Positions 6,843 through 23,993 are shown, counted from the stretch's first letter. The stretch is DNA of 64,000 nucleotides from an uncultured delta proteobacterium (GCA_963745035.1 CAVUVW010000013.1:320001-384000), one strand, 5' to 3'. The notes: generated from the letters alone by a model not told the origin. Program-made: numbers and translations.

Positions 6843-7667
6843 CTACAACTGAAGTCCGCGAGTGAGATAGTAGAAGATCGGTGCGACGATGATCCGATAC
6901 CAGGCAAACGGCGTCAGCCTGCCGCGCTGAAGGAATCGGACAAATCCTTTGACCGCGACCAGCGCGACTAAAAACGAGACCAGAAATCCGACGCCGAGCC
7001 CGATGGCGTCTGCCGCGGCCAATTGATCACGCATTTTCAAAAGCTCGTAACCGCTCGCCACAAACAAAACCGGGACTGCGATCAGAAAAGAAAATTCCGC
7101 CGCGCTTTTGCGATCCAAGCCGACCAGCATGCCGCCGATAATGGTGGCGGCGGCTCTCGACGTGCCCGGCCAAAGCGCGAGAACCTGGAAGAGCCCGATC
7201 CCCAAGGCCTGCGCGGACGTGAGCCGGTCCGCGTCATTGGAAATTTTCCGCGATTTGAATCGCTCCACGAGCAGAATCGCCACTCCTCCCACGCCCAGCG
7301 CCCAAGTTACCGTCGCGGGATTGAAAAGCTGCTCTTTGATCATGTGCTGCGTGAAATAGCCCACGACCAGCGTGGGACAGGTAGCGAGAGCAAGACGCCA
7401 AAGTCCGGCCCAGCCGTCGAGCGCCGATCGCGCTTTGGTCAAAGATCGTTGCCGCGTCGGCAGCAGGCGCACAAATCTCCGCCAGTACAAGCAAACCACA
7501 GCGAGGATCGCGCCCAGTTGAATCACCACCTCGAAGCTGGCGGCGGTTTCGCCGACGAAGCCCAGCAAGTGACCGGCGATAATCAGATGTCCGGTGGACG
7601 AAACCGGCAGAAACTCGGTCACCCCTTCAACGATTCCGAGAATTATGGCGGTCGTCAAATCGTCCAT
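6843..7667 (-). CDS. uppP: Undecaprenyl-diphosphate phosphatase
   Basis: GIVEGVTEFLPVSSTGHL and PGTSR motifs. Confidence 0.95.
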   Translation of the reverse strand: MDDLTTAIILGIVEGVTEFLPVSSTGHLIIAGHLLGFVGETAASFEVVIQLGAILAVVCLYWRRFVRLLPTRQRSLTKARSALDGWAGLWRLALATCPTLVVGYFTQHMIKEQLFNPATVTWALGVGGVAILLVERFKSRKISNDADRLTSAQALGIGLFQVLALWPGTSRAAATIIGGMLVGLDRKSAAEFSFLIAVPVLFVASGYELLKMRDQLAAADAIGLGVGFLVSFLVALVAVKGFVRFLQRGRLTPFAWYRIIVAPIFYYLTRGLQL

Positions 7668-7728
7668 GATGCCCTTGAATAGATCGCCTTGGCGCGATGC
7701 GCGTCAGCGCTAGAAAAAATCCGCGCGC

Positions 7729-9492
7729 TCACGGCTTGGTTACCAGAAGATATTCGTCGACCGCGCCCAGGCGCAGCGGCAACTCGCCGACGTTGCCGGC
7801 CATGCGCTGTAGGTTTTTCTCTTTTACGATGATCAGCAAGGAGTGCTTGGCGGTTAGCCAATGCTTTTGGAATTCCTGGAAGCTCAATATCGTCCCCGAC
7901 GCAGCGGTCGGCGACTCCTCGGGATTGCCCAAGGCGTGGAAATTGCCCAAAAAAGTTCTTTTTTTGTTTTCGTGGGTGACCAGCATAAGCGGCCGCTCTC
8001 CGCGCAAATAAAAAAGCGCGCCGGCAAAGTAGGTGTCGTAGAACACTAGTTGAGTGGACGGCGTGAGCTTCGGCTTGATTGCCGCGATAATCGTCTCAGC
8101 GGAGCGGTTCGGCGAGATCAAGACAATCATCTGCACGACCAGCGCAAGGAAAACGCCCATGCCCGTCGCTTGGAGCGCATAGAGCCGGCCCTGGCTTGGG
8201 AGCGGATCGAAGCCGCTGCGTTTGACCGTATACACCAGCATCACGGCGGAAACGGCGGCAAGGAGCCACACCGAAAATCCCATCGCGCTCACGGCGGAAC
8301 GAATCTGGCGCGGTAAAACGGCCGGAAAAAACCACCCGGCGACAAAAAACAGCGCGACCGGCAATAGGATCCACCAGGTAAGCGATAGCGCAAAGCACCA
8401 TTGCGTCGGCGCGTCCTGGTACAGACGCGCCAAAGCCGCAGCCGTGAGCAGCGCCAGCGCCGGAAAAATCGGCAGAAGGTAGTGCGGCAACTTGGACTTG
8501 GAAAGGGAAAAAAGCAGCAAGGGTAGGACGATCCAGAGGACAAGATAGAGGATCTTGTCATCGAGTCTTTTGGCGACGAAGGCCTTCCACGCCATTTTCG
8601 CCGCCAGCGGCAGCAGCAAAGTCCACGGCAAAAAACCGACAAAGCCGACGGCGATAAAATAATACCAGGGCTCGCCTCGATCAAAATCGTCAGTGGCGAA
8701 GCGGCCGAAGTGTTCTTCCCAAAGATAGTAATGGAGATAACCGGGGTTTCGCGCTTCGGCCGGCAAATACCAACCCAAGACGATGGCGAGAAACAGCAGG
8801 GTGCCGGGGACCAGCGCCATTCGTTTGAGCGTCGCCCACTGCTTGCTCAACAGCAAATAAAAAAGGATCACCATTCCCGGCACCGCCACACCGATCAGCC
8901 CCTTGATCAAGGTGGCGGCTCCCAGCGCCACATACATCGCCGCGCACCAGAGCCGGCGGCGCGGCGGATCGCCGCTGTGACCGGCTTCGAAAAAGGCGCA
9001 CAAAGCCAGCGTGAGAAAAAACGTCAGGGTCATGTCAAGAATGACGATCCGGGCCAGAACGAAAAATTCGACGCTGGTGAGGAGAATCAGCGTGCTCCAC
9101 AGCGCGGTCCAACGCCCCCAAGAAACCTGCGCAAAGCGGTAGACGAGCGCCAAGGTTCCGAGAGCGGCCAGCGCCGAAGGCAGGCGAGCGGCCCACTCCG
9201 ACACTCCGAAAAATTGATAGGCAAGCGCGATCAGCCAGTAGAAAAAGATCGGCTTGTCGAGCACCGCGTGAAAATTTTCATGGGGCGTCAGCCAATCTTG
9301 CAGCACGAGGATCTCGCGCGCTTTCTCGGCGTTTCGTCCTTCGTCCGGTTCGAACAAAGCGGCCCCGCCCAAATGATAAAACAGCGCCGCGACGATGCCC
9401 GCCCAGGCGAGCCAGGCGAAGCCCCGCGCCGAAACAGAAAACGTCTTGCGATCGAGAAAGCCGGCCGTAAGTCCCGCGAAGTTGTGCGCCAC
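7729..9492 (-). CDS. ArnT-like GT-C glycosyltransferase (family 39/83)
   Basis: DEGRNAE, DKPIFFYW, ARLPSA, TLIKG, SKSKLPHYLLP motifs. Confidence 0.88.
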   Translation of the reverse strand: MAHNFAGLTAGFLDRKTFSVSARGFAWLAWAGIVAALFYHLGGAALFEPDEGRNAEKAREILVLQDWLTPHENFHAVLDKPIFFYWLIALAYQFFGVSEWAARLPSALAALGTLALVYRFAQVSWGRWTALWSTLILLTSVEFFVLARIVILDMTLTFFLTLALCAFFEAGHSGDPPRRRLWCAAMYVALGAATLIKGLIGVAVPGMVILFYLLLSKQWATLKRMALVPGTLLFLAIVLGWYLPAEARNPGYLHYYLWEEHFGRFATDDFDRGEPWYYFIAVGFVGFLPWTLLLPLAAKMAWKAFVAKRLDDKILYLVLWIVLPLLLFSLSKSKLPHYLLPIFPALALLTAAALARLYQDAPTQWCFALSLTWWILLPVALFFVAGWFFPAVLPRQIRSAVSAMGFSVWLLAAVSAVMLVYTVKRSGFDPLPSQGRLYALQATGMGVFLALVVQMIVLISPNRSAETIIAAIKPKLTPSTQLVFYDTYFAGALFYLRGERPLMLVTHENKKRTFLGNFHALGNPEESPTAASGTILSFQEFQKHWLTAKHSLLIIVKEKNLQRMAGNVGELPLRLGAVDEYLLVTKP

Positions 9493-9894
9493 TGCTGAGC
9501 TCGGACTAGATTCGCGATTCAGCGTACCTGAGGACCGGTGATTTGCAAGCCACTGCGGGAAACCGCGCGCATATTCTTTGACCGTCTGTGAGCGTCCGCC
9601 GGGGATTTTTCCGCATTGACTTCAACTGGGCCGTCGCGTAGCGTGAGTGAGGCTTTGCTAGAGGTGTTCCATGTTCAGCGATTCCGCCACTCCTAAAATT
9701 ATCCGCGCGCTCCCGCGGCCATTGACGGCTCTTCGTCCAAGCCACGGTCTCTCTGCGAACGGCTTAATTCACCAACCGGACACGGTATTTCTTCGTTCCG
9801 ACCCTTCTGCCGGCGCCGCCGGCCGAGGGCCGATCCAGCGATCGATTTCTATTCCTTGCAAGTGAGCGGCAGCGCGCCGGCGTGCGGGCGAGCG

Positions 9895-11109
9895 ATGAAA
9901 TATTTTCTTTCAACTGTCGCCGCTATTTTTCCTGCTGCGATTTTTTTGCTGTCTGCCGGGACCGCCGTTTACTCCCAGCCGGTGGCAAGCTTCTTCTACG
10001 ACGAGCGCGGCAACGTAATTCGCCAGACCCAGGACACCAACGGCGACGGCAAGATCGATCGCGCGATTATTTATAACGCCCAGGGACAGACCGACCGGGT
10101 CGAACAGGATCTTAACTTCGACGGCAAAGCCGATGTGTTCATTTACTACGAATCCGGCAAACCCGCCCGTCAGGAAATCGCGAGCAAAAACGACGGCCAA
10201 GTCGACACCTGGCTGTATTTGAATATGAAGGGCGAAATCGAACGCAAGGGCCAGGATACAGAGCGCTCAGGAAAACCGAATCTGTGGATCTATTATGAAA
10301 ACGGCCAACCGGTGCGCAGTGAGGAGACCGCCAAGGCAACCGGAGCGGCCCATCGAAAAGTTCACTACAAAGACGGCAAGATCAGCCGGGTGGAAGAAGA
10401 CAGCAACGGCGACGGCAAGCCGGACACGTTCTCGTACTTTGAAAACGGCCAGGTCGTGCGCAAGGACCTGGATCGAAAACACCTGGGAAAAATCGATTTG
10501 TGGGGTTACTACCAGGACGGCCGGTTGATAAAACAGGAAGAAGACGTGCGCGGCGACGGCAAAGTGAGCCGGGTGCTTTACTTTCGCGGCGACGAAGTCC
10601 TGCGCCGCGAGGAAGATACCGGCGGCCGCGGCCGCATGGACTTGATCGAGCTGTTTGCCCAGGGGCGGCTTACGCATCGATTGCGCGATAGCAAAGGAGC
10701 CGGTAGGTGGGATACGCTCTATTCTTATCGCGACAATCAACTTGCGAGCGAAGAGCGCGACACCGACGCCGACGGCTTTTTCGATCTGAGAATTTTATAC
10801 GAAAAGGGAGCGATCGTGGCCCAGGAGGCCGACACCAACGGCGACCGGCGCGCCGACGTATGGGTGCGCTTTGAGAACGGCGAGCGGGCCGAACAGCTCG
10901 AGGACCAAAAGTACCAAGGCAAAGTCACCGCTCGCTATGTTTTGAAAAACGGCGCGGTCGCCCAGCAGGAGCAATTGGACAATGCCGAACCGCCGCGGCT
11001 CTCCGAGCCGTTCGGTGCAGTCGAGCGGGCGTTACCAAGCACGGGAGAGCCGGCGAGCCGCGCCGCCAATGCCTTGTCCGGGGTAGAGTCTCGCGTTGAA
11101 ATAAAGTAA
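9895..11109 (+). CDS. Secreted protein with ~13 tandem 24-25 aa DxNGDGxxD beta-hairpin repeats
   Basis: Signal peptide MKYFLSTVAAIF...; repeats such as DTNGDGKIDRAIIYNAQGQTDRVEQ, DSNGDGKPDTFSYFENGQVVRKDL, DTNGDRRADVWVRFENGERAEQLE. Confidence 0.8.
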   Translation: MKYFLSTVAAIFPAAIFLLSAGTAVYSQPVASFFYDERGNVIRQTQDTNGDGKIDRAIIYNAQGQTDRVEQDLNFDGKADVFIYYESGKPARQEIASKNDGQVDTWLYLNMKGEIERKGQDTERSGKPNLWIYYENGQPVRSEETAKATGAAHRKVHYKDGKISRVEEDSNGDGKPDTFSYFENGQVVRKDLDRKHLGKIDLWGYYQDGRLIKQEEDVRGDGKVSRVLYFRGDEVLRREEDTGGRGRMDLIELFAQGRLTHRLRDSKGAGRWDTLYSYRDNQLASEERDTDADGFFDLRILYEKGAIVAQEADTNGDRRADVWVRFENGERAEQLEDQKYQGKVTARYVLKNGAVAQQEQLDNAEPPRLSEPFGAVERALPSTGEPASRAANALSGVESRVEIK

Positions 11110-11135
11110 GATTTGCCCCTCCCGGCTGGAGCGAA

Positions 11136-12269
11136 ATGAAAAATCGATCCCGCTTTTTTTTGTTGCTGCCATTGCTCGCGCTTTGCGCCTGCGAGCCTGT
11201 GGCGGTGCAATATCCGCCGGGCTCGCCACAGCAGTATCCCCAGCCGAATTCAGGTGGCTCGGTCGCCGCCCCGCAAGCGCCGGAGGTGAGCGGATCGCAG
11301 CGCTGGCAGCACGCCTGGACCAAAGCGATGGAAGGGATAGCCATGGGGGGCGCGCTCCTCGGTCCCTACGGCGCCGGCGGCGGTTTGGTAATCGGCCTCA
11401 TCACCGGCCTGGTCACCGCGGATGCGCATTACGGCCAGATTAACAATCAGATCCACACCGAACAAAGAAAAGAACAGCAACTCGAGGCGGCCATCGAACA
11501 GGAGTTGGCGCGCCAGCGAGAGTTGGAAAACCAGCTCGCCGGCGTGCCGGCGCAGCCCAAGCCGGCCGAGATGCAGTCCGGCGCCGCGAAAAGTCCGCCG
11601 CCGCAAGCCGCCCCGGCGCAGACACCGCTCGCCCGCCCTCCTTCCAATCAGACCGGCGTCGCGGCATTGACCAAGCCGGCGGTGAATGCATCGGCGCCCA
11701 AGCCGTTCAAGAACGTCGATGTGCGGGACGTAAACGGCGACGGCGTGCCGGACCTGTGGATTTACTACGATCCACAGCGACCCAACGAAATTATCCGGCA
11801 GGAGGAGGCGACCCAGGCCGACGGACGCGTCGATGCGTGGAGCTATTTCAAGGACGGCAAAATGATTCGGCGCGAAGTGGACACCCGCCAATCGGGAAGG
11901 CCGGACAGAGTCTATTTTTACGAGGGCGACAGGATTGCGCGTGAGGAGCGCGATGAAAGCGGCCAAGGCGCCATGACCTACCGCGCTTTGTACGACAACG
12001 GCCGCCTCGCCCGCGTCGAGAAGGATTCAAGCGGCCGTGGCCGGGCGGACCTGTGGACTTACTACGACACCGGCAGCGACGGAGAAATCATCGTCAAGGA
12101 AGAGCGCGATCTCAACGGTGACGGCATCCCGGACCTTTGGTCGCACTTTGAAAACGGCCGCTTGGCGCGCCGCGACGTGAGCGCTGTCGGTCTTGAAATC
12201 TTGTCCAAAACGGAACAGCTTCCGGCGCCCGCCGTGGAATTCATTCAGACAGTGATTCCGGGTAAATGA
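11136..12269 (+). CDS. Lipoprotein: glycine zipper, coiled coil, Pro-rich linker and 6 DxNGDGxxD repeats
   Basis: Lipobox LALCAC; GIAMGGALLGPYGAGGGLVIGLITG; QQLEAAIEQELARQRELENQL; DVNGDGVPDLWIYY and DLNGDGIPDLWSHF. Confidence 0.8.
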   Translation: MKNRSRFFLLLPLLALCACEPVAVQYPPGSPQQYPQPNSGGSVAAPQAPEVSGSQRWQHAWTKAMEGIAMGGALLGPYGAGGGLVIGLITGLVTADAHYGQINNQIHTEQRKEQQLEAAIEQELARQRELENQLAGVPAQPKPAEMQSGAAKSPPPQAAPAQTPLARPPSNQTGVAALTKPAVNASAPKPFKNVDVRDVNGDGVPDLWIYYDPQRPNEIIRQEEATQADGRVDAWSYFKDGKMIRREVDTRQSGRPDRVYFYEGDRIAREERDESGQGAMTYRALYDNGRLARVEKDSSGRGRADLWTYYDTGSDGEIIVKEERDLNGDGIPDLWSHFENGRLARRDVSAVGLEILSKTEQLPAPAVEFIQTVIPGK

Positions 12270-12270
12270 C

Positions 12271-13297
12271 ATGACCGCGCAGAGTTCCACTCGATGGGGG
12301 AGACCTGAGCCTTCTCCCTCTGTTCCGCAGTCGATTTCTAGTCTCTTCGATACTTTTTCATAGTCTGCTTTTGCTCCTGGCGCTGCGCGCGGCGACGCTG
12401 ACGATCGTCAAGCCTCGACCTGAGACCCCGATCTCAGTGCAGTTGCTGGAAGTGCGGGACGGCGCCTCCACCACCAAGAGCATCGGGCCGAGCGTAGGTC
12501 CCGGCGGCCCGCGCACCGCGCCGAAGCTGGGAACGCCGGTCGCGCCCGCGGAGCGAAGCGGCAAGCTTGACGCCGGCTCACTGGAAACCTCGATTCCGGC
12601 GGACAAGCCCGTCGAAGCCGCGCCGCCGGCCAAGCCTGTTCCCATGCCCGGACCAAAGGTCCTGGCTGATGCTCGCTCGGAAGCCGTGAACGTCAAAGAA
12701 ACGTCGCCCGACTCGTTGGTGCACCTGCCGACCAAGGAGACTCCGACTCAGCTCCCGAGCAGCGCCGCCGCCGATCTGGAAGCGAACCAAAGAAGCCTCG
12801 CGGCGCTCAAGAACGCCGGCGATCCCGCCGGCATAAAAGCGCTCAAAGAAGGCACACAAATTCCCGGAGCGCTCAAGGGCACAGGTTCCGGAACGGGTCC
12901 TTTGGGCGTACCTGGTGGCAGCGCCGCCGGCAGCGGAATGACGGGCGGCGGAACCGGCGCGGGGTCGGGCGGCGGCAGCGCGACCGGCCTTAAAGGACTG
13001 TCGAGCGCCGACTACAATCGCTATCTCAGTCAACTCAAGAAGCGGGTCGAATCGGTCTGGAAATATCCCGATGGCGTGTCGGGAGTGCAGAAGGTGGCGA
13101 TTCTCTTTACCCTCGATCGCGCCGGTCGCTTGATGCAGTCGGAGATTTTGGAATCCACCGATGCGCGACTGAACGCGAGCGCGGTCGAGGCGATGAAGCG
13201 CGCGGCGCCTTTTGCGCCGATCCCGGAAAGCTTGAAGGATCTTGCCAACACGCCGCTGCGCATGCAGTTCACGGTGAGCATCGGCGTGCGCGGTTGA
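12271..13297 (+). CDS. TonB/TolA-like energy transducer (true start uncertain; probable frameshift near 12296)
   Basis: In-frame TM with SxxxH motif (SILFHSLLLLL) just upstream of the track start; Pro/Gly-rich linker; C-terminal TonB_2/TolA-type domain (YLSQLKKRVESVWKYP...SAVEAMKRAAPF). Confidence 0.8.
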
Positions 13298-13455
13298 GCT
13301 TCGCTCATCTCGCCGAGCCTTATCCCGGAGTTCGCTGTCACGACGGCAGGATGGTGCCCCAGGCGGCAGATCGTTCTCACCCGCGAAATTCGGGTTCATT
13401 GCATTAGTTTTTATTTGCGGTAATCATCACCGAAGCATTCGGAAGGAATTTTTTC

Positions 13456-14085
13456 ATGGAGCCGCAGCCGGGTCTCGATCTCATCCAGATTATTCATCAA
13501 GGCGCTATCGCCACCTATCCGTTGATTCTCATGTCGATCGTCAGCGTCGCGGTGATTTTCGAGCGGCTTTGGTCGCTGCGCAATATCGGCTCGGCGACGG
13601 TCCGGGTCACGGACGCGATGTTGGAGCCGGCGCGCAAGGGGCAACGCGACTTGGCGATCGCCATCTGCAAGCAAAATTCGAATTGCCCTGCCGGCCGCAT
13701 CTTTCTCAACGTCCTGGAGCGCGACGCCGGCGCGCGCGCCGAGGCCGCCAGCGGCGCCGCCACCGAAGCGCTGTTCGAGGAAACACAAAAAATGAGAAAG
13801 CATCTTTGGATCCTGGGCACGGTGGCGAGCAGCGCGCCGTTCATCGGCTTGTTGGGAACGGTCGTCGGCATCATCAAATCCTTCGAAAGCATGGCCGTGG
13901 CGGGAACCGGCGGCTTTGCCGTGGTCGCAGCCGGCATTTCCGAAGCCCTAGTGGCCACCGCCCTCGGCCTCGGTGTAGCGATCGTCGCGTTGATTTTTTA
14001 CAACTATTTTCAGAGCCGCATCGCGGCCTTGAACGGCCTATTTCGCATTCAGGTCGGCAAGGTCTTGCAGACCCTGAGCGCCTGA
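13456..14085 (+). CDS. MotA/TolQ/ExbB proton channel protein
   Basis: APFIGLLGTVVGII and GISEALVATALGLGVAI. Confidence 0.93.
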   Translation: MEPQPGLDLIQIIHQGAIATYPLILMSIVSVAVIFERLWSLRNIGSATVRVTDAMLEPARKGQRDLAIAICKQNSNCPAGRIFLNVLERDAGARAEAASGAATEALFEETQKMRKHLWILGTVASSAPFIGLLGTVVGIIKSFESMAVAGTGGFAVVAAGISEALVATALGLGVAIVALIFYNYFQSRIAALNGLFRIQVGKVLQTLSA

Positions 14086-14094
14086 GGAACTGTT

Positions 14095-14520
14095 ATGGCC
14101 ATGACTCCACTCGGCGGCAACGACGAGAGCTCCGAGATCGTTGCCGAGATCAACATCACGCCGTTGACCGACATCTTCCTCGTGCTGCTGATCATCTTCA
14201 TGATCACCAGCTCGGCGATGATCGAGTCCGGCGGCAAAGTGAACCTGCCGAAAGCGGTCGCCACCCAGTCCGAGTCGCGTGGCATCACCGTAACCCTTAC
14301 GCCCAAGCGCGAGATCTTCGTCAATCAAAAGCCCGTGTCCGAAGAAGGCTTGGAAAAAGCGCTGCAAGATGCGCTGAGCAACAACGCCGCCAAGATCGTG
14401 ATCCTGCGTGGCGACCGCGAAGTCCTGCTCGGCGACACGGTGAAGGTGATGTCGATCATCAAGCGGGCCGGCGCCTCAGAGATCGCCATCGCAGCCGAGG
14501 CCGAGAGAAAAGTTCGCTAG
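14095..14520 (+). CDS. ExbD/TolR family protein
   Basis: EINITPLTDIFLVLLIIFM with the conserved TM Asp. Confidence 0.93.
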   Translation: MAMTPLGGNDESSEIVAEINITPLTDIFLVLLIIFMITSSAMIESGGKVNLPKAVATQSESRGITVTLTPKREIFVNQKPVSEEGLEKALQDALSNNAAKIVILRGDREVLLGDTVKVMSIIKRAGASEIAIAAEAERKVR

Positions 14521-14707
14521 CGAAATTCCGCAGGCCGCACTCGAGTCCGGCCGCAAAGTCGTCTCACACCTGGCCATCCATATTCCGCAGCGCAATGCCG
14601 CTTTGGGCCCATTGATCACAACCCGCTCGGCGGCGATAAGATATCGCCTTCACCACAGAGGATTGCGCCCCGCGAAGCGCAACTGCGGATTCGAGTTAAG
14701 GGCGGCG

Positions 14708-15958
14708 TTAACGAGCGGGCGTGTCGGTGGGTGGCGGTAGTTGGGCGGGACGAGCGCCGCCGCCTTGGCGATTGCGCTCGATCTCACGTTGGATTTCCTC
14801 GGAGCTTTTGCCTAAACGGTCCACTTCCAATTGGAGATTTTTTTCCTTCTCGAGAAACACTTCGAGCTCCAGCGACTTGCGCGTTCCCGATTGATAAAAA
14901 ATCGTCGTCGAAGCACGCCCGTTGGAGCCGTCGCTGGCGCGCGCCAAGACTTCGATTTGATTGCGTCCTTCGACCACCGGCACCGCCGATGAAAAAAATC
15001 CGTCGGCAGCCAGGCGCAGATGGGTCGCCTTCTGACCGCTGGTCTGGTTGACCACCTGCACGTATTCGACTCCGACGATCGAGATATTGTCGAGCACGGC
15101 GAGCACGTCCACCGGGCGCACCACCGGCGTGTAAGTGCCGCCGCTCTCACGCGCAATCCCGAGCGCCGCTCGCGGATAGGAGAGCGCTTCTTCACCGAGC
15201 GCAAAGACGTGGACTTTGATGCCCGCCTTGCCGGCCAGCCGAGCCGCATTGATCGCCAAGGCGGTATCCTCGGGTGTGGCGCGTTTGCCGCCGCCGATCG
15301 GCAGCGACGGAAAGCCGTCGGTCAGAAGAAACTGAACTTTGATCGCGTCGGCGCGCTTTTCGCTCGTGCCCAAACCGAAAAGCTCGGTGGTCGCCATGCG
15401 AATGCCTTCGACCATATTGGTGCCGCCATACGGTCCGGCGCGCAAAATCTCGGTCAGCACGCGGCGCACCTGCTCGAAATCATGGGTGAGCGGCTGCATG
15501 AGCTTCGCCCCTTCGCTGAAAGTCAGCACGCCCACCCGGGTGGTCTGGGCGTTGAGCTGTACGAGCAGGCGGCGCGCCGCGGCCACTTCCGCGGCCAGGA
15601 TGGAGTTTCTCGGGTTGCGCAGCGACGGTCTGCCGACGCTCATGCCGCCGATAAAGATCTGCGGCGCGCCGAGCCCGGAGGTTTCCGGAGGTTGATCCGC
15701 GTCGCCCAAGTCGGCGCCGGCGTATATCGCCGTGCTGCCGGAGACGTCGATGACCAGAAAAATATCGACGTTTTCCGACCGCCCGGTCTCGCGCGCTATC
15801 TTGCCGCTGACGAAAATCGAATTTTTATCCTGGCTAATCCGGCTGCCGTCGCTGGGCGAGAGGATTTCCACCCGGGGCTCGGCCGCCCATGTCGCGAACG
15901 GCAGGCCCAAAAAAAGGAAAAGTCCAAAAGTAAAAATCGACAATGGACTTTTGTTCAT
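14708..15958 (-). CDS. Secreted VWA domain protein with flanking Ig-like segments
   Basis: Signal peptide; complete MIDAS (DVSGST, GGTN, LTDG); VEILSPSDG and VVEGRNQIEVLA Ig-like ends; C-terminal coiled coil. Confidence 0.85.
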   Translation of the reverse strand: MNKSPLSIFTFGLFLFLGLPFATWAAEPRVEILSPSDGSRISQDKNSIFVSGKIARETGRSENVDIFLVIDVSGSTAIYAGADLGDADQPPETSGLGAPQIFIGGMSVGRPSLRNPRNSILAAEVAAARRLLVQLNAQTTRVGVLTFSEGAKLMQPLTHDFEQVRRVLTEILRAGPYGGTNMVEGIRMATTELFGLGTSEKRADAIKVQFLLTDGFPSLPIGGGKRATPEDTALAINAARLAGKAGIKVHVFALGEEALSYPRAALGIARESGGTYTPVVRPVDVLAVLDNISIVGVEYVQVVNQTSGQKATHLRLAADGFFSSAVPVVEGRNQIEVLARASDGSNGRASTTIFYQSGTRKSLELEVFLEKEKNLQLEVDRLGKSSEEIQREIERNRQGGGARPAQLPPPTDTPAR

Positions 15959-16071
15959 GGGCCACCGTTCCGAGACCCACGCTATCACGATTGACCCAGT
16001 GGGAAAAGAGCGCGAAAAATGCGCGAAACGATTTGCGTGCCCCGAAACGGTCATCATGCTACAATTTCTTT

Positions 16072-16809
16072 ATGATCAAGGTGGTTTTTGTCCTGGCTTG
16101 CTTGATCGGCTGGTGCGCCATCGCCGACGCGCAGTATATCGTGGTCTTAAAAAACGGCCGGCAGTTGGCCGTGCAAAGCTATCGCGAGGACGGCGCGACA
16201 ATCCGGTTTTCCGGCATGGGCGGTGAGATCGCCATCGGCAAGGACCAAGTGCAAACCATCCGGCGCGCCGGCCCGAGCGATCGAAGCGCGATTTCCAACC
16301 TCGACCAGGATCGGCCGAGCAAGCCGCCGGCCGCAACGGTGCCGTCCCCCGCCGCAGCCCCAGCGCCTGAGGCGAAACCGTCCGCGCCGTCGCCCGCAAC
16401 CGACGAGCAGGCGCCCGCCACTCGGGCAGACGAAGAACAGGCCTACCAGCAAAAAGTCAAAGAGCTCACCGCGCAACTGAAGGAGCTCCGCGAACGGTAT
16501 GCACTGATCACCCGCGGCACCAAGGGCTCGGAGCCGAGCTTCTTTACCACCGAAGAAGCGTTCCGCGGACATCAGGAAGATTTGCTGTCGCGCCTGCGCG
16601 ATGCGCAGTTCAAGGCCCAGGGCCTGCCGAGCGGCGCCAATGCCACCTCGCCGCCATTTTCCCTGGATCCGCCGCCGGCCTATTCGGAAAAGCAAAAAGA
16701 GCTAAGCGAGCTGCGCAATCGCATTACCGAGCTCGAAAACCGGCGGGAGAGACTGATCGACGAGATGAAAGCGAAGAACTTCGACACCGGCTCGCTATTC
16801 TTGGATTAG
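16072..16809 (+). CDS. Secreted hypothetical protein (small beta domain, Pro-rich linker, coiled coil)
   Basis: Signal peptide [11 protein letters not shown]...ADA; VLKNGRQL N-domain; heptad-rich C-half. Confidence 0.7.
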
Positions 16810-17238
16810 TCTCGCCGCTGCCCGCAGCCCCAGAAGATAACTCTCCGCACCGAATCCGGCGATCTGCCCAACCGCTACTTCGGCTATGTAGGAATGGTGC
16901 CGAAACGTTTCGCGCCGGTGAATGTTCGAGATGTGAATTTCGACGGTGGGAATCGCCGCTGCGGAAATCGCGTCGCGCAGCGCCAGGCTGGTGTGTGTGT
17001 ACGCCGCCGGATTGATGACGAGCGCCGCGCAACGGTCCGCCGCTTCCTGAATCCAGGTGACCAGCTCGCCCTCCGAGTTGGACTGGCGGAAATCGATCTC
17101 CACGCCGAGCTCCCCGGCAAGGGCACGAACCTGCCTTTCGATTTCCGCCAGCGTGGTCTTGCCATAGATTTCCGGCTGCCGCCTGCCTAGGAGATTGAGA
17201 TTGGGGCCGTTGAGCACCAGAATTTTTTTTGTTGCCAT
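16795..17238 (-). CDS. aroQ: Type II 3-dehydroquinate dehydratase
   Basis: [18 protein letters not shown] and [10 protein letters not shown]. Confidence 0.96.
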
Positions 17239-17276
17239 CGCTTCCCTCTGTCGCGCCGGTGAATAAGGACGGCAAT

Positions 17277-18353
17277 CTACGCGGCCAGACCGCGGAGAAT
17301 TTCCTCCGGCGCCAGCCAGTGAAAGCGCGTCCTGCCGATGCCCTCGCACATGACGAACTTGATCTTGCCGCCCGCGACTTTTTTATCGATCTCCATCGCC
17401 TGAACGAGGCTGCGAAGCGAAACCTCGGCGGGAATTGCCACGGGAAGCCCGGCTTTTTCCACCAGAGCGGCGATCCGCTTGAGGCTCTCCGCGTCGCACA
17501 GTCCTTGGCTGACCGAGAGGGCCGCCGCTTTGATCATGCCGATCGCTACGGCTTCGCCGTGGAGAAAACGCCGGTAGCCGGTCGCGGCTTCCAACGCGTG
17601 ACCGACGGTGTGGCCGAAGTTGAGTACCGCGCGATGATCGTCCTCGCGCTCGTCCATCTCGACGACGCGCGCTTTGATCGCGCAGGAGGTCGCGACGATT
17701 TGTGTGAGCAGTTGGGGATTGAGCCCGATAATGTGCTCCATGGCGTTTTCGAGCAGAGAAAACAGGCGCGGGTCCTCGATGATGCCGTATTTGATCACTT
17801 CCGCGAGCCCGGCGAGCAATTCCCGTTTCGGCAGCGAGCGCAGCACGGCGATATCGATCACGACCAATTTGGGTTGATAAAACGCGCCGATCAGATTTTT
17901 GCCTTCCGCGTGATTGACCGCAGTCTTGCCGCCGACGCTCGCATCGACTTGCGCGAGCAGGGTGGTCGGCAGCTGCGCGTAGGGAATGCCGCGCAGATAC
18001 GTCGCCGCAGCCAAGCCCGCCAGATCGCCGATGACGCCGCCGCCGAGCGCGAGCACGCAGGATTTTCGTTCCAAGCGCGCGGCGATCAAGCGCTCGTAGA
18101 TGGTCGCCAGCGATGCGAGGTTCTTGTGTTCTTCGCCGTCCGGGACCAGCACCGGCGCGACGTCGAAGCCGGCGTGGCGCAACGAATCGTACACCGGATC
18201 GAGATAGAGCTGCGCGACCACGGGATTGGTGACGATCGCGGCTTTGCCGCGCAGCCCGGCCTGGCGGAGCAGCTCGCCGGTCTGCTCCAGGAGCCCCGCG
18301 CCGATGTGAATCGGGTAGGAACGTGCACCGAGGTTGACCGTTAGACTCTGCAT
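17277..18353 (-). CDS. aroB: 3-dehydroquinate synthase
   Basis: [32 protein letters not shown]. Confidence 0.97.
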
Positions 18354-18868
18354 GGCTTTTCCTGCGCCCGCTCGAGAGCGAAGATGATCTTATCGACCAC
18401 CTGATCGATCGTCAGGCCGCTGGTGTCGATAGTGATTTTGGCTTGCGCGTAGCGGCCCTGGCGCTCGCGCAGCAGCTCCTCGACGCGCGCGCGCACATCG
18501 CCGCCTTTGAGCAACGGGCGCTTGGAATTCCTCCCTACCCGGCTGAGCAGCGCTTCCGTCGAAGCGGTGAGACCGATGAGCCGGGATTTTTCCTGGAGCA
18601 GGCGCAAATTTTCCTCGTCCATGACGATGCCCCCGCCGGTGGCGATCACTTGGCCCGGCCGGGCAAGCACCTCGTTCAGCATCTTTTTTTCCAAACCGCG
18701 AAAATACGCTTCCCCCTGGCGCGCGAAAATCTCGCGGATCTTGCATCCCTCGGTTTTCTCGATCAGCGCATCCAGATCGACGAAACGGCGGCGCAGTCTG
18801 CGCGCGAGGTTGCGCCCGACGGCGCTCTTTCCCACCGCCATGAAGCCGACCAGGGCGATGTTTTCCAT
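18341..18868 (-). CDS. aroK: Shikimate kinase
   Basis: GFMAVGKS P-loop, ATGGGIV, RPLL. Confidence 0.95.
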   Translation of the reverse strand: MENIALVGFMAVGKSAVGRNLARRLRRRFVDLDALIEKTEGCKIREIFARQGEAYFRGLEKKMLNEVLARPGQVIATGGGIVMDEENLRLLQEKSRLIGLTASTEALLSRVGRNSKRPLLKGGDVRARVEELLRERQGRYAQAKITIDTSGLTIDQVVDKIIFALERAQEKPCRV

Positions 18869-18881
18869 CTGCGGTTTCGGC

Positions 18882-20078
18882 CTAGTAGTTTTTGATCTGT
18901 TCGAGATAGTTCTCGTAGTTGCGCTTGATCTCGCGCAGCGAGTCGCCGCCGAATTTTTCCAGAAACGCCTTGGCGATTTCGAAGGCGACCACTGATTCGC
19001 CCACCACCGCAGCCGCCGGCGCGGCGCAGACATCCGAGCGCTCCACCGAGGCGTCGGCGGGCTGCTTGGAGCGCAGATCCACCGACTGTAGCGGGCTCAT
19101 GAGCGTGGAGATCGGCTTCATCGCCACCCGGACGACCAGCGGCGCGCCGTTGGTCATGCCGCCTTCCGTGCCGCCGGAATTGTTGCTGCCGCGATAAAAT
19201 CCGGTGGGCACGATGCGCGGCGTGCCTTCGCTGACCATTTTGCCGGGGTCGAAAAAGATCTCGTCGTGCACTTGCGAGCCGCGCTTGCGCGCCATCTCGA
19301 AACCCAGGCCGATCTCGACCCCTTTCATGGCCTGGATGCTCATCAGCGCCTGCGCCAGGCGGCCGTCAAGCTTGCGATCCCATTGGGTGTGCGAACCCAG
19401 GCCCGGCGGCAATCCCAGCGCCACGACCTCGAAAACGCCGCCGAGCGTATTGCCTTCCTTTTTGCACTGTTCGATGAGCGCGATCATTTGCGCTTCGGCC
19501 GCGCCGTCGGCGGTGCGCACGGGCGATTCGTCCGAGCGGACGTAAATCTCGTCGAAGGAAAGCCCGCTCAGATTCGCCGCCACGCCGCCGAGCGAGCGGA
19601 TATAGCCCATGACGCGGACGCCAAAGGGCGCAAGGAGCTGTTTGGCAAGCGATCCGACCGCGGTGCGCGCCACGGTCTCACGGGCGCTTGCCCGCTCGAG
19701 AATATCGCGCACGTCGGCGCGGTCGTATTTGAGCACGCCGTTGAGATCGGCATGGCCCGGACGCGGTTTGGTCACCGCGATCTTGTCGTCGCGATCCTCG
19801 GGCAAGGCCGACATCTTCTTGGTCCAGTTTTTCCAATCGCGATTCTCAATGCCCAAAGCGATCGGCGCGCCGATGGTTTCGCCCCAGCGGATGCCGGAGC
19901 GAACCTGCGCTTCGTCTTTTTCGATGAGCATGCGCCCGCCGCGGCCATAGCCTTGTTGGCGGCGCCACAGATCGTGATTGATCTTGCCGATTTCTATAGG
20001 AAACCCGGCCGGCACCCCGTCGATAATCATGGTCAGACAAGGGCCATGGGATTCTCCCGCCGTGAAATACCGCAACAT
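18882..20078 (-). CDS. aroC: Chorismate synthase
   Basis: TAGESHG, PRPGHAD, ERASARET. Confidence 0.97.
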   Translation of the reverse strand: MLRYFTAGESHGPCLTMIIDGVPAGFPIEIGKINHDLWRRQQGYGRGGRMLIEKDEAQVRSGIRWGETIGAPIALGIENRDWKNWTKKMSALPEDRDDKIAVTKPRPGHADLNGVLKYDRADVRDILERASARETVARTAVGSLAKQLLAPFGVRVMGYIRSLGGVAANLSGLSFDEIYVRSDESPVRTADGAAEAQMIALIEQCKKEGNTLGGVFEVVALGLPPGLGSHTQWDRKLDGRLAQALMSIQAMKGVEIGLGFEMARKRGSQVHDEIFFDPGKMVSEGTPRIVPTGFYRGSNNSGGTEGGMTNGAPLVVRVAMKPISTLMSPLQSVDLRSKQPADASVERSDVCAAPAAAVVGESVVAFEIAKAFLEKFGGDSLREIKRNYENYLEQIKNY

Positions 20079-20120
20079 GCGGGGGTATCGTAACTTAATT
20101 CTTGGGAAATTACAGCAGCG

Positions 20121-22112
20121 CTACGGCTGAGAGGGCGCGCCGGCCGCCTGCTCACCTTGCGTCTTGCGAATCTGCTCGCGCCAGAGTTGCTCGGCGCTGG
20201 GGAGATTTTCGGAGCCCGCGGAAGCGATCCGCGGCGTGATGAAAACCACCAGCTCTTCAAAATCTTTCTGGAACCGCCAGTTTTTGAAGAGCCAGCCGAG
20301 AACCGGAATATCTTTGAGATAAGGTACGCCGCTTTGCGAATTGATGTCGCTGTCTTTGAGAATGCCACCGATGACGATTGTTTCGCCGTCGCGGACTAAA
20401 ACGTTGGCCTCGGCTTCACGGTTGAGCTCGTCGAAGGGTACTACCGAGAGACCGCTCGAGACGGTCGGTGAATTGGCAAGCGAGCTCGATTTGACCTTGA
20501 TGTTCAGCAAAACGAAGCCGTCGCTGGAAACCTGGGGGATCACGGTTAGATTGATGCCGACGGGCACTTTCTCGGTTGCCACGGCTGTCCCTGCGGCAGC
20601 GCCGCTGCCGCTCGCGATATTCGTGGAGCTTGGCAGCACGATGCGGAGGACGCGCTCGCTCTTGATCGTTGAGGGAACGTTGTTCAAGGTGACAACGGAA
20701 GGGCGGGAGATGACTTTAATCTGTCCCTCGTTTTCCGCCGCCGTCAGCACCGCGCGAATGTTGTTGCCGAAATAGCCGAAGCTAAATCCGGAACTCGGGA
20801 TCGGCAGCACCGGGATAGCCGCGGCGGCGCTGCCCGCGAAGGGTGCCCCCGCGAGAAAACGCGAGCTTCCGACCACGCGAGCGTCGTTGAGGATCGCGTC
20901 CAACTCCATGCCCAGCGCGCGAGAGAAGGTCGGCGTGGTTTCCACCAAGTTTGATTCGATTAACACCTGGGGTGTCCGCGAGTCGAGTTTGCCGACCAGG
21001 ATGCTGACGTCTTCGACCGCTTTTTGGATATCGCGGATCATGATGGTGTTGCTGCGGTCGTCGACTACCAGTGCCTTATCCGGCCGTTTGCTCATGAGCG
21101 GCTGAATTTTCGGCTCAAGCTCTTTGGCCCTGGCGTAATTGAGCGTGAAATAGACGGTGTGCATCGGATCCAGCTTCTCTCTGGATTCCTTCGATGCGAT
21201 CAGCTTGTCCCTTTCGCCTTTCAGCGCCTCCGCGGTGGAGATGCGCACCACGTTGCCGATTTGTTCTTTCTCCAAGCCATTGGTGGTAATGATCAAATCC
21301 ATCGCCTGGTCCCAGGGAACCTCTACCAAGCGCAGGGTGACCCTGCGATTCACATCGCTGGTGACCACAATGTTGAAGCCGCTCACTTCGGCGAGCAAAC
21401 GAAAGACGTTCTTGATATCGGCGTCTTTGAAATCTAGGGAAATCTTTTGCCCGGTGTAAGTTTTCTCCACTGACCGATCGTCCGCGCCCGGCTGCGAGCG
21501 GGCGGCGCTCGCAGCGCCCTGGCTCACGTCCACCCGCTGTCCGCCGCGCACCAAAACCACGTGGCGCTTCGCGCTGATGTTGGGATCGGGGCTGCCGACG
21601 ACGATCTTTAACCAGCCGTCCTCCTGGGAAATCACGTAGGGGGGAATGCTGGCCGCGGCGATTTCCGCCACGAGGCGTAGACTGTTCTCGCCAGCGTTCA
21701 AACGCAATACCGAGGCGATGCCGGTGTCGATGCGAAAGATGTCGGCCGGTGCCGCCGCGGCGGTGTCGCCCAGGATATCCAGAACGATTCTCGACGGCTG
21801 CGGCAATGTAAAATGGCGGTACTGAGTCACCGGCTGGGCAAACTTCATCAGCAGGATCGTCTGGCCGCGCTCTTCGCGCACCACCAGTTCCTGCAAACTC
21901 TGGCCGGCTGCGATCGAAGTCTGCGGCTTGGCGCTCCCGGGCGTGGACGCCGGTGCAGCTTGAGAGGGCGAGTGCGTCATCGCGGCCTTGGACGGGCCAT
22001 CACTGGTAGTCCCACAACCGGCCGCTCCGCTCAACGCCGCCAGAAAAATTACGGCGAGGCGCGAGGCGACTTTTGCCGCAGGTATTTTGAGTCGCGATTG
22101 ACGACGATCCAT
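20121..22112 (-). CDS. pilQ: Type IV pilus secretin
   Basis: Lipobox, AMIN domain, YTGQKISLDFKDADI, VPWDQA, GVPYLKDIPVLGWLF. Confidence 0.95.
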   Translation of the reverse strand: MDRRQSRLKIPAAKVASRLAVIFLAALSGAAGCGTTSDGPSKAAMTHSPSQAAPASTPGSAKPQTSIAAGQSLQELVVREERGQTILLMKFAQPVTQYRHFTLPQPSRIVLDILGDTAAAAPADIFRIDTGIASVLRLNAGENSLRLVAEIAAASIPPYVISQEDGWLKIVVGSPDPNISAKRHVVLVRGGQRVDVSQGAASAARSQPGADDRSVEKTYTGQKISLDFKDADIKNVFRLLAEVSGFNIVVTSDVNRRVTLRLVEVPWDQAMDLIITTNGLEKEQIGNVVRISTAEALKGERDKLIASKESREKLDPMHTVYFTLNYARAKELEPKIQPLMSKRPDKALVVDDRSNTIMIRDIQKAVEDVSILVGKLDSRTPQVLIESNLVETTPTFSRALGMELDAILNDARVVGSSRFLAGAPFAGSAAAAIPVLPIPSSGFSFGYFGNNIRAVLTAAENEGQIKVISRPSVVTLNNVPSTIKSERVLRIVLPSSTNIASGSGAAAGTAVATEKVPVGINLTVIPQVSSDGFVLLNIKVKSSSLANSPTVSSGLSVVPFDELNREAEANVLVRDGETIVIGGILKDSDINSQSGVPYLKDIPVLGWLFKNWRFQKDFEELVVFITPRIASAGSENLPSAEQLWREQIRKTQGEQAAGAPSQP

Positions 22113-22135
22113 GTAATTTCCTCGTTCTCTGGTCC

Positions 22136-22768
22136 CTACTCGGTTACGAGCTTCATTCCCACGTCGCGTTTCTTGCGTGCGCCGTAATCGTCGGAGTAGA
22201 TTTCTTCCACGATCACTTCGTTGCGAGAAATCGCCTTTATCTTGCCGTCGTTGCTGCCGATCGGAGTGCCGACCTTGACGACGTAGCCGAGCCCGCCGCT
22301 GTCTTCGACTATCGCCCGCGGATCCCCGATATCCCAGACGATGCCGACGAGCTTGAGTTGGCTGAGCTCGAAGCGCTCCAGCGGCGAGAGGTTTTCACGG
22401 TTGCGCGGCTTGTCGGTCTTGGCCCGAAGGGTCGTCGGCTGAAACGGGTCGCGGCGCGACGGATCCATCTTGAGCGCGGCCGCGGGGGCTTCAGGACTTT
22501 TCGACGGCAGAGTCAGGTCGACGGGATCGGCTTTGGTTTCCGGAGCGGCCTTGCCGCCAAAGGTTTGCCGGATCTTCTCTTTCGCCCCGTCGGTCAAAGC
22601 CTGGAGGGATTTTCCGATCGTCGCCGGCGCTTTGCCGGCCTTGCCGATCGTCTCCTTCATCTGCTCCGACGGCGTGCGAATCGTCTCCTCCGCGGCGACG
22701 GCTGGCGCCGCGAAACGCGCCGCGCAGGAGAACAAAATCAGCAGAAAGAGCTGGCGCCTTCTTCCCAT
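22136..22768 (-). CDS. pilP: Type IV pilus assembly protein PilP
   Basis: RRDPF...PLERFELSQLKLVGI...GTPIGSNDG; position in operon. Confidence 0.9.
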   Translation of the reverse strand: MGRRRQLFLLILFSCAARFAAPAVAAEETIRTPSEQMKETIGKAGKAPATIGKSLQALTDGAKEKIRQTFGGKAAPETKADPVDLTLPSKSPEAPAAALKMDPSRRDPFQPTTLRAKTDKPRNRENLSPLERFELSQLKLVGIVWDIGDPRAIVEDSGGLGYVVKVGTPIGSNDGKIKAISRNEVIVEEIYSDDYGARKKRDVGMKLVTE

Positions 22769-22769
22769 G

Positions 22770-23393
22770 TTATCGTTTGGCCTTTGCCGCTTTGGCTTTG
22801 TCCTCGGCGACTTTCTTGCGTTCGGCATCGTTGAGAAAACGAAATGCCGTCGCGACGCCGGTTGTTTCCAACATGATACGGTCGCCGTTGACTGTCGGAT
22901 TCTTAAAGCCGATGTTGTTGATGTTCACCAGCCGATCCAATCGTCCTACTTCGTCAAAAAAACTGACGGTGTTGTGGAAATTTCCTTTGACGGTGATATC
23001 GACCGGAACCTCGGCATAAAAATCCTGAAAGGTTTCCGCGCGTGGGCGAAATACCAGGACATCCAGTCCCGCCTGCTGCGCTTTCGCCGAAATATTTTTG
23101 AGCAAGTTAGGAATCTCGCCCTTTTCCGGCAGCTGGGCGAGCGCCCGCTTAAGTTCGGCGTCGAGGTGCTGCAGGTCCTTGCGCAGGCGCCCGAGATCGG
23201 CTGATTTCTGGGTCTTTATCATTTTTTCGTTTTTCGCGATCTCGACGCTATCGACCAACTTTGCCACCTCGTCCGCGCGCGGGCCGTACAGAAAACTATA
23301 ATAAAGCGCCGCGATCAGAACGATCGTTACAATCAGAATGCCGAGCTTCTGTTTGCCTGGCCGCTCGAGGAGATTGTCGAGCAGTTCGTTCAC
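22770..23393 (-). CDS. pilO: Type IV pilus assembly protein PilO
   Basis: QLPEKGEIPNLL, FYAEVPV...GNFH...LDRLV. Confidence 0.93.
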   Translation of the reverse strand: MNELLDNLLERPGKQKLGILIVTIVLIAALYYSFLYGPRADEVAKLVDSVEIAKNEKMIKTQKSADLGRLRKDLQHLDAELKRALAQLPEKGEIPNLLKNISAKAQQAGLDVLVFRPRAETFQDFYAEVPVDITVKGNFHNTVSFFDEVGRLDRLVNINNIGFKNPTVNGDRIMLETTGVATAFRFLNDAERKKVAEDKAKAAKAKR

Positions 23394-23993
23394 TCTTTTT
23401 TCTCCTCGATTTTTTTTGGCGCTGCGGCCTTGATCGCTTCCGACGGCACGGGCCGATAGATCGCCTGAGCCTTCGCCGTGAACTTCTTGAGCGCGGCGCT
23501 GGAGCCTGTCCCTTGCACGGTTTCCACGAGCCCGACATCGGCAAAATAAGTGGAGGCGGTGAGCGACTGCAGAAAGCTGGCCACGGTTTCATTGTCGGTC
23601 GCCAAGCCATTCATGGTGATACTGCCGCTGCTTTCGCGCAGATCGGTGAGCCAGAGACTGGCGGGCGTCGCCTGAGAAAGGCTCGCCATGACCAGCACGG
23701 GCCCGCTCTTTTTATGGTTCAGTTCGTCGACGATCTTCTGCTTGCCGCGCAGATCTTTGATCTTCATCTGAAGATCGGCCACTTCCTTGACTTTGGCGTT
23801 CAACGCCTGGAGCTCGGCGCGCAGCCCGGCCAACTCCGTTTCCAATCCGGTCGAGCTGGTAATGCTGATACAGATGCGTGCCCGCAAGCAGCAGCATCGC
23901 GGCGCCCAAGACCACCGCACCGATGATGATCTCGCGCCGGCGCGTAACCTCGGCCTTGAGTTCCTTGATCGGCAGAAGATTGATGTGAATCAT
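23390..23993 (-). CDS. pilN: Type IV pilus assembly protein PilN, frameshift near 23850
   Basis: MIHINLLP N-terminus in one ORF and the PilN domain in the overlapping ORF. Confidence 0.88.

Follow-up and report, generated by a model that had tools for sequence, protein, structure and literature searches.

A conserved Ton/Tol-type motor locus with beta-hairpin repeat proteins in an uncultured relative of the Binatia

Results

Five co-oriented genes encode two repeat proteins, a transducer and a motor pair

To our knowledge, the Ton and Tol motors are the only well-understood energy supply to the Gram-negative outer membrane. Here, we analyzed a locus in a stretch of 64,000 nucleotides (GCA_963745035.1 CAVUVW010000013.1:320001-384000, the window hereafter) from an uncultured soil bacterium. 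This host is a relative of the Binatia, and its near kin among public genomes are mostly Candidatus Binatia, with older labels naming uncultured delta-proteobacteria. Between positions 9895 and 14520, the plus strand carries five co-oriented genes for two repeat proteins (rep1 and rep2), a TonB-like transducer, an ExbB-like protein and an ExbD-like protein (Table 1). A previous reading of the window, made from the sequence alone (the sequence-only reading), had proposed these genes as an undescribed envelope machine without a receptor, and all five were recovered on the plus strand. We found that the locus is real and conserved, and that it is apparently an undescribed variant of a Ton/Tol-type system.

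Contigs from an RNA library of the rhizosphere (run X15) contain parts of the locus, which is a weak hint of expression given that an RNA library may hold DNA; the contigs cover parts of the locus only and cannot show transcription units. A scan of positions 9400-16200 for promoters and terminators, in which no search for iron boxes was made, gave no excess over shuffled sequences.

Table 1. Genes of the locus and its conserved neighbours, with positions in the window
Feature	Position	Strand	Evidence
rep1: secreted, 13 beta-hairpin repeats and conserved C-terminal tail	9895..11109	+	Open reading frame (ORF), profile, AlphaFold2 (AF2) model
rep2: lipoprotein, 6 rep1-type repeats and conserved tail	11136..12269	+	Lipobox, profile, AF2 model
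TonB/TolA-like transducer, frameshifted near 12290	12271..13297	+	SxxxH helix, TonB_2, tonB_Cterm
ExbB/TolQ-like motor subunit	13456..14085	+	Pfam MotA_ExbB, tree, PDB matches
ExbD/TolR-like motor subunit	14095..14520	+	Pfam ExbD, transmembrane Asp26
Secreted MIDAS-VWA protein with Ig-like Glucodextran_B domain	14708..16057	-	Pfam; convergent neighbour
Secreted coiled-coil protein, no known family	15943..16809	+	Conserved neighbour

The repeat proteins are predicted to form single-layer hairpin ribbons

The longest ORF of rep1 begins at TTG 9856, and the alignments of its orthologues begin at ATG 9895. Its N-terminus is hydrophobic and signal-like, and after it come 13 tandem units, each 24-25 residues long; four of them have the full EF-hand-like loop D-x-[DN]-x-[DN]-G-x-x-[DN]. 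A repeat profile was built from these 13 laid-out units, so that their recovery in rep1 is by construction. The same profile independently found six units in rep2 (E 8e-9 to 2.5e-4), and no unit at E<1 in six other locus proteins or in 40 shuffles of rep1 and rep2. The 13-repeat secreted protein and the six-repeat lipoprotein of the sequence-only reading were thus both recovered.

The AF2 model of rep1, made from a 26-row alignment (pLDDT 86, pTM 0.72), consists of about 28 strands in consecutive hairpins. When the model was compared with PDB representatives, it matched the single-layer sheet of an OspA variant (Z 10.2, root-mean-square deviation (rmsd) 16.1, 264 residues aligned), the CPAP G-box (Z 9.6, rmsd 3.8, 169 aligned), T. 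brucei MORN1 (Z 9.0, rmsd 5.9, 199 aligned) and junctophilin-2 (Z 8.0, rmsd 5.9, 234 aligned); Z values of 8-10 are common among repeat folds, and the likeness to MORN proteins is a resemblance only. This resemblance lies in the elongated, single-layer antiparallel beta-sheet of hairpin repeats that MORN1 and junctophilin share with rep1. Unlike those proteins, the repeats described here have EF-hand-like Asp/Asn/Gly loops and a bacterial periplasmic setting, and they score below the cut-off of MORN_2, the 'MORN repeat variant' family (PF07661, 22.8 bits for rep1 vs a cut-off of 29.6). A Foldseek search of the PDB also returned RHS/YD shells, teneurins and Tc toxin cocoons, which were rejected as generic hairpin-sheet likeness and not kinship; these local matches had high probability, with TM values of only 0.1-0.3. 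No PDB entry was matched by the sequence of rep1 at E <= 1.

On the Pfam family DUF6802 (PF20615), rep1 scores 23.8 bits, below the cut-off of 27. The Myxococcota homologue in locus L037 scores 51.2 bits, and among the protein-atlas clusters nearest to rep1, DUF6802 is found on 28-62% of the members. The Lsa25.6 family adhesin (NF050087, cut-off 150) scores 62.1 bits on rep1 and 32.3 bits on rep2, both below the cut-off. Atlas names for the family are automatic only (hypothetical, FG-GAP-like, VCBS, EF-hand). Literature searches on DUF6802, on MORN variants with TonB, on Binatota with TonB, and on accessory calcium-binding proteins with ExbB, ExbD or TonB returned nothing relevant, and those on Lsa25.6 returned only Leptospira adhesin or vaccine work.

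The second repeat protein, rep2, has a lipobox, and all 17 aligned sequences share its Cys19. It continues with a glycine-zipper helical hairpin, a coiled coil, a Pro-rich disordered linker, the six repeats and the conserved tail. Its AF2 model shows helices at residues 53-134, including the glycine-zipper stretch, disorder at 137-187 and hairpin repeats at 194-348. The rep2 family is large, with 1862 representative clusters at E <= 0.001.

We also observed a paralogue of rep2 on contig C14 of the same genome (646360-647530; L027:6360-7530), with about 52-55% identity. It lies among sugar-metabolism and phospholipase-D-like genes, with no motor or TonB gene nearby, and is split into two overlapping ORFs, which represents either a further assembly frameshift, besides that of the transducer gene described below, or a decaying copy.

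The transducer carries an SxxxH helix and a TonB_2-type C-terminal domain

The transducer consists of an SxxxH transmembrane helix (about 12347-12361), a Pro/Gly/Ser-rich linker of about 190 residues and a C-terminal TonB_2-type domain. This domain scores above the cut-offs of TonB_2 (32.2-35 bits, Pfam cut-off 22) and tonB_Cterm (TIGR01352, 36.2 bits, cut-off 27.1). Its TonB_C score is 22.7-24.9 bits and, at 22.7, misses the Pfam cut-off of 24.6. The protein also stays below the TolA equivalog (TIGR02794, 22.6 bits, cut-off 59.45), and in the PDB its C-domain has weak matches to the C-domains of TolA (E 0.0025) and TonB (E 0.0037). The TolA of this genome likewise scores higher on TonB_2 than on TonB_C (70.4 vs 31.2). 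Four of the five other full-length TonB_C matches in the genome score 58-91 on TonB_C and 19.5-47.6 on TonB_2, and for the fifth (contig C25, 78.6) no TonB_2 match is listed. These scores suggest that the C-domain of the transducer leans to the TolA side.

The SxxxH helix named by the sequence-only reading is real, with S-x-x-x-H in frame upstream of 12371 and its His nearly invariant across 16 aligned homologues, but in this assembly it is cut off from an ATG. The first canonical start codon of its frame comes only after the helix, and the downstream ORF spans 12371-13297. Orthologues start at the ATG corresponding to 12271, one base past the rep2 stop and in a different frame, which places a frameshift near 12290. 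The gene is uninterrupted in eight orthologues. In addition, public run X4 contains a 4686-nt contig that is 99.7% identical (15 mismatches over 9700-14172) and has one base fewer at 12290, which joins both parts of the gene in one frame. Because the X4 contig lacks the extra base and the orthologues are intact, we attribute the frameshift to an assembly error or a strain variant rather than to the system itself. In run X1, the contigs are interrupted precisely at 12289/12291.

The motor forms its own clade beside TolQ

Both motor genes are intact, as the sequence-only reading had claimed. The ExbB-like protein matches Pfam MotA_ExbB (PF01618) over residues 78-192 with 111.1 bits (cut-off 22.9), and the ExbD-like protein matches Pfam ExbD (PF02472) with 98.9 bits (cut-off 25.4). 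Equivalog models gave lower relative scores. The ExbB-like protein scores 112.2 bits on tolQ (TIGR02796, cut-off 221; 233.3 for the TolQ of this genome) and 79.4 bits on exbB (TIGR02797, cut-off 206.2). Since the ExbB from the receptor locus of the genome also misses the exbB equivalog, with 61.3 bits, this model is a weak judge in the lineage. Likewise, the ExbD-like protein stays below the cut-offs of tolR (89.8 vs 127.3) and ExbD_1 (62.9 vs 152.95). Sequence matches of the ExbB-like protein in the PDB include TolQ (5.7e-16) and ExbB (7.4e-14). Asp26 of the ExbD-like protein lies inside its hydrophobic transmembrane segment and is presumably the counterpart of the proton-binding Asp of ExbD and TolR.

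To place the motor, a maximum-likelihood tree with a midpoint root was built from 32 ExbB/TolQ-family rows. These came from this genome, two second-family Binatia genomes, two Myxococcota genomes, one Desulfobacterota-type genome and the locus orthologues; two fragments with internal stops (L084), two duplicates (L085, L087) and four weak matches (L088-L091) were left out. The window motor, four genus orthologues and five motors from Myxococcota repeat loci form one clade (96/91), which is sister to the TolQ clade (joint support 99/95), in a tree that has no AglR reference and cannot place AglR. The TolQ clade (100/99) holds the TolQ of this genome, and the receptor-locus ExbB groups elsewhere. 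The NCBIfam tolQ scores follow the same division, with 213-241 in the TolQ clade, 111-123 in the window motor clade and 46-104 in the remaining rows. The motor thus nests in neither canonical ExbB nor canonical TolQ, which agrees with the distinct class proposed by the sequence-only reading. By these sequence comparisons, motor and transducer appear to lean to the Tol side without being Tol.

Repeat genes and motor genes are linked in several lineages

We scanned species-representative genomes for the rep1 family with a query from six orthologues and obtained 39 loci. In a separate comparison within the order, homologues of rep1 were found in 20 of the 24 other genomes of the genus and in 3/5 genomes of a second Binatia family, and in none of 11 genomes of a third family. 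The five-gene order was identical in 9 Binatia loci and 4 metagenome loci. A TonB-like gene, an ExbB/ExbD gene or both are adjacent to the repeat gene in 16 of the 39 loci (7 Binatia, 6 Myxococcota and 3 Desulfobacterota-type). Three further loci are cut by contig ends, and one has only a VWA-OmpA fusion gene adjacent.

The linked loci show four gene orders, distributed over the two Binatia families, the Myxococcota and the Desulfobacterota-type genomes. The second Binatia family has tonB-rep1-rep2, whose stop and start codons overlap, beside exbD-exbB-VWA on the other strand. The six Myxococcota loci have tonB followed by the gene for a secreted repeat protein of about 1080 residues, divergent from exbB-exbD. 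In the Desulfobacterota type, the repeat gene comes first in rep-exbB-exbD-tonB operons. Linked genes often have overlapping start and stop codons.

An even sample of the phylum gave a match at E <= 1e-20 in 5 of 151 genomes, the window's own counted. All five loci from the other four genomes have the order rep-exbB-exbD, and tonB follows in three of them. A metagenome scan with rep2-like lipoproteins yielded 80 loci; motor or transducer genes adjoin the repeat gene in 18, and 47 showed no linkage. Lipoproteins of about 490 residues with the same C-terminal repeats (P0192 type) had no recognisable neighbours in six longer loci. Taken together, the link between repeat genes and motors on which the sequence-only reading depends recurs elsewhere, in 16/39 genome loci, 5/5 further loci and 18/80 metagenome loci.

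Several other features of the linked proteins and loci were observed. The metagenome protein P0009, encoded on a 1908-nt contig, is secreted and has about 11 hairpin repeats fused to a TonB_2-type domain; an alpha/beta-hydrolase (PGAP1-like) domain begins after it and is cut short where the contig ends. The long Myxococcota repeat proteins (L037:4791-8048, L038:7551-10874, L044:7650-10922; P0015) share a short conserved C-terminal motif of Gly-Cys-Gly, aromatic residues and then Trp/Lys/Arg, which by its sequence looks like a sorting or anchoring tag. Directly upstream of exbD-exbB, 4 of the 5 Myxococcota loci with sufficient flanking sequence have an ABC-2 permease and/or GldG-like (ABC_transp_aux) gene (L037:503-2023, L038:1903-5009, L044:1134-5098, L054:1866-4427). 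A tblastn search of the window's genome found no GldG-like homologue.

The genome has complete Tol and Ton loci elsewhere

The genome (7.4 Mb, 28 contigs, 92.6% complete; the window lies on contig C13) holds only three MotA_ExbB loci. A canonical tolQ-tolR-tolA-tolB-pal-cpoB cluster is located on C13, about 440 kb from the locus, and all six of its proteins score above the NCBIfam cut-offs (TolA 77.5 bits on TIGR02794). On contig C25, exbB-exbD-exbD-tonB adjoins the gene of a Fiu-like receptor. Because complete tol-pal and exbBD-tonB-receptor loci are both present, the window locus is a third system.

The claim that neither the operon nor the window holds a receptor was upheld, with none found among 49 window ORFs scanned with Pfam and none on C13. 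The three TonB-dependent-receptor matches of the genome are located on C25 and C14, and each has a TonB gene of its own next to it. Pfam and NCBIfam also gave no match to TolB or Pal in the locus proteins.

A MIDAS-VWA protein accompanies the locus and the lipoprotein

The convergent neighbour of the motor pair matches Pfam VWA_2, VWA and the Ig-like Glucodextran_B, contains a complete metal-ion-dependent adhesion site (MIDAS) motif and probably starts at Met34 (about 15958). Its gene is conserved beside the locus in every Binatia locus with enough flanking sequence, and the MIDAS residues D104, S106, S108, T213 and D247 are invariant in 13/13 homologues. Read by eye, its N-terminus resembles a signal peptide whose hydrophobic segment lacks both His and Asp, as in the second Binatia family.

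A VWA homologue also occurs in 15 of the 80 metagenome loci, convergent and directly after a rep2-like lipoprotein gene, with no motor nearby (L132, L138, L140, L142, L145, L148, L150, L152, L154, L156-L159, L166, L170). Like rep2, the lipoproteins of these loci have a lipobox, a glycine zipper, a coiled coil and some six repeats. In L132 and L142, the VWA gene is immediately preceded by an OmpA-family gene; OmpA and VWA are fused in L043, and SH3b and VWA are fused in one locus of the second Binatia family. These arrangements suggest that the lipoprotein form is tied to a metal-dependent binding protein that is often wall-anchored. The VWA protein likely belongs to the system. Two other loci of the 15 have an M28-peptidase gene beside the lipoprotein-VWA pair.

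The secreted coiled-coil protein next to the VWA gene probably starts at about 16072 and matched no Pfam or NCBIfam family. A homologue follows the VWA gene in all Binatia loci seen, with two copies in L021. Its membership in the system is uncertain.

On the other side of the locus, the minus strand carries genes for an undecaprenyl-diphosphatase (BacA) and a PMT/ArnT-family glycosyltransferase (6843-9492), divergent from rep1. Both are syntenic with the locus inside the genus and not in the second Binatia family. Further downstream (16795-25090, minus strand), shikimate genes (dehydroquinase II, dehydroquinate synthase, shikimate kinase and chorismate synthase) are followed by pilQ-pilP-pilO-pilN-pilM; this shikimate and type IV pilus stretch is ordinary housekeeping context.

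Comparison with known systems

The locus resembles Tol-Pal in several respects. It combines a 5:2-type motor pair with a transducer that has an SxxxH helix, a long linker and a TonB_2-type C-domain. Its soluble all-beta periplasmic protein and its lipoprotein are a formal parallel to TolB and Pal, it has no receptor gene, and its motor clade is sister to TolQ. Unlike Tol-Pal, the locus has no TolB propeller, no OmpA domain of Pal and no CpoB; its ExbB-, ExbD- and TonB-like proteins are all below the TolQ, TolR and TolA equivalog cut-offs, and its partners are MORN-like hairpin ribbons and a VWA protein. With ExbB-ExbD-TonB energisers it shares the same Pfam families, and the Desulfobacterota-type repeat gene leads receptor-bearing operons. 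It differs from them in that no receptor is found in the locus, window or contig, the TonB_C cut-off is missed and the receptor-locus ExbB groups apart.

A recent survey of periplasmic force transducers (PMC12204202; Williams-Jones et al. 2025), the nearest published frame that we found, describes, in its main text, vWA-headed force transducers beside tolQR-like motors and states that many more motor-driven systems remain to be discovered. Similar to these, the locus is a motor-linked envelope system with a conserved VWA neighbour, which in one Binatia family is co-oriented with exbB-exbD. In the systems of that text, the vWA domain heads a membrane-anchored transducer with an SHLS helix or replaces TolR. 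Here, in contrast, the N-terminus of the VWA protein is signal-peptide-like without His, and a separate TonB-like transducer is present; by eye, the window protein shows neither an SHLS helix nor a TolR-like pore helix with Asp. The word 'MORN' is absent from the main text of PMC12204202, where 'vWA' has 21 occurrences; the supplements list operons and lie outside this count.

Discussion

The sequence-only reading had proposed a distinct class of Ton/Tol-like system without receptors. This proposal holds in part: the conserved linkage and the separate motor clade stand, but the class as a whole is not receptor-less, since a receptor or Plug gene lies beside most of the Desulfobacterota-type operons examined with Pfam. 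For the Binatia locus, we tentatively favour, with slightly less than half of our confidence, a third, Tol-leaning, proton-driven envelope module that acts through the repeat proteins. We infer that these proteins are the target of the motor. In such a module, the ExbB-like/ExbD-like motor in the inner membrane would use the proton gradient, and the TonB/TolA-like arm would dock on it via the SxxxH helix and span the periplasm. The C-domain of the arm may then engage the exposed edge strands of the ribbons or their conserved tails. The first repeat protein would be soluble in the periplasm, and the lipoprotein with the VWA protein would form a link from membrane to wall. VWA partners elsewhere carry or adjoin OmpA or SH3b wall-binding modules. 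The motor would remodel or mobilise the rep2-VWA link, as TolQRA acts on TolB-Pal, and no TonB-dependent receptor would be opened. In the Desulfobacterota type, the repeat family may have been recruited to, or retained in, ordinary receptor operons.

A more specific form of this idea, which we regard as unlikely, is a second Tol-Pal-like system between outer membrane and wall. Here rep2 and the MIDAS-VWA protein would form a calcium-dependent tether, rep1 would be a TolB-like competitor or carrier, and the TolQ-sister motor would pull by a strand-paired TolA/TonB-like arm. If this holds, 5:2 motors would act on a load of a new class, different from both a receptor plug and TolB-Pal.

Several observations weigh against a module that acts through the repeat proteins without a receptor. 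In the 39-locus scan, the short members of the family (about 230 residues, within some 200-300) are motor-unlinked in 19 of 19 loci. In the second Binatia family, the motor next to the repeat genes falls into another clade, and the repeat proteins are therefore not bound to one motor lineage. The VWA protein of the window has no wall-binding domain recognisable by Pfam, and in this assembly a frameshift near 12290 interrupts the TonB-like gene. Of the six Desulfobacterota-type operons examined with Pfam, five have a receptor or Plug gene inside or adjacent (L040, L042, L108, L109 and L110; not L107), which suggests that the repeat family can work with ordinary import systems. Finally, the genome has 8 TonB_C matches vs 3 motors, and two receptor-adjacent TonBs on C14 are without their own exbBD. 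Because TonB-type proteins outnumber motors, the window motor might also power the C14 TonBs or serve receptors encoded elsewhere.

The last of these points also speak for another explanation, in which the repeat proteins are periplasmic helpers of TonB-dependent import and the Binatia locus is a spare energiser for receptors or orphan TonBs elsewhere. The Desulfobacterota-type transducer is a true TonB (TonB_C E 1e-14 to 1e-20), the operons that hold it lie near feoAB, DUF4198 (metal-uptake) and TPR genes as well as receptor genes, and in this setting the repeat protein resembles an accessory component of normal import. The rep-exbB-exbD(-tonB) order of all five phylum-sample loci fits the same explanation. 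However, the Binatia and Myxococcota motors form a TolQ-sister clade apart from the motors of Desulfobacterota repeat loci, and the transducer C-domain is of the TolA-leaning TonB_2 type. Moreover, the flanks examined in Binatia and Myxococcota loci showed no receptor gene, and the lipoprotein form with its VWA/OmpA partners points to envelope structure. We therefore consider a helper role in import possible for the Binatia locus, although rather less probable than not.

VWA domains are adhesion modules, and the closest motors belong to Myxococcota. This raises the idea of an Agl-Glt-type system for motility or adhesion, in which the motor would move an adhesion complex that spans the envelope and whose outer parts would be the VWA and repeat proteins. 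Against it, the locus has a single ExbD-like gene, vs a pair for AglQ/AglS, and no genes for Glt-like outer-membrane barrels were seen in the flanks examined. GldG-like ABC genes lie upstream in 4/5 Myxococcota loci with enough flank, but the window's own genome gave no such homologue by tblastn. Section 8 of the main text of PMC12204202 suggests a gliding role for vWA-headed transducers. Overall, a motility system of this type seems very unlikely to us.

A chance association, with repeat proteins, VWA protein and motor functionally unrelated and co-inherited in one lineage, is disfavoured to the point of being barely credible: the genus-wide synteny includes bacA, the PMT-family glycosyltransferase gene and aroQ, so that gene order at genus level proves little, and 47/80 metagenome loci and 19 short-protein genome loci are unlinked, but the linkage recurs in four gene orders across two Binatia families, Myxococcota and Desulfobacterota-type genomes, with overlapping start and stop codons among linked genes and the repeat-TonB_2 fusion of P0009.

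Returning to the third, Tol-leaning module, what the loci share is a recurrent set of partners: MORN-like ribbons with calcium-type loops, a glycine-zipper lipoprotein and a MIDAS-VWA protein. In Binatia and Myxococcota this set accompanies Tol-leaning motors, and in the Desulfobacterota type it accompanies ordinary Ton operons. With respect to the transducer, the ribbons may act as load, scaffold or adaptor. Any of these answers would widen the known range of energy transduction in the envelope. It would also give a function to a large repeat family without an assigned role.

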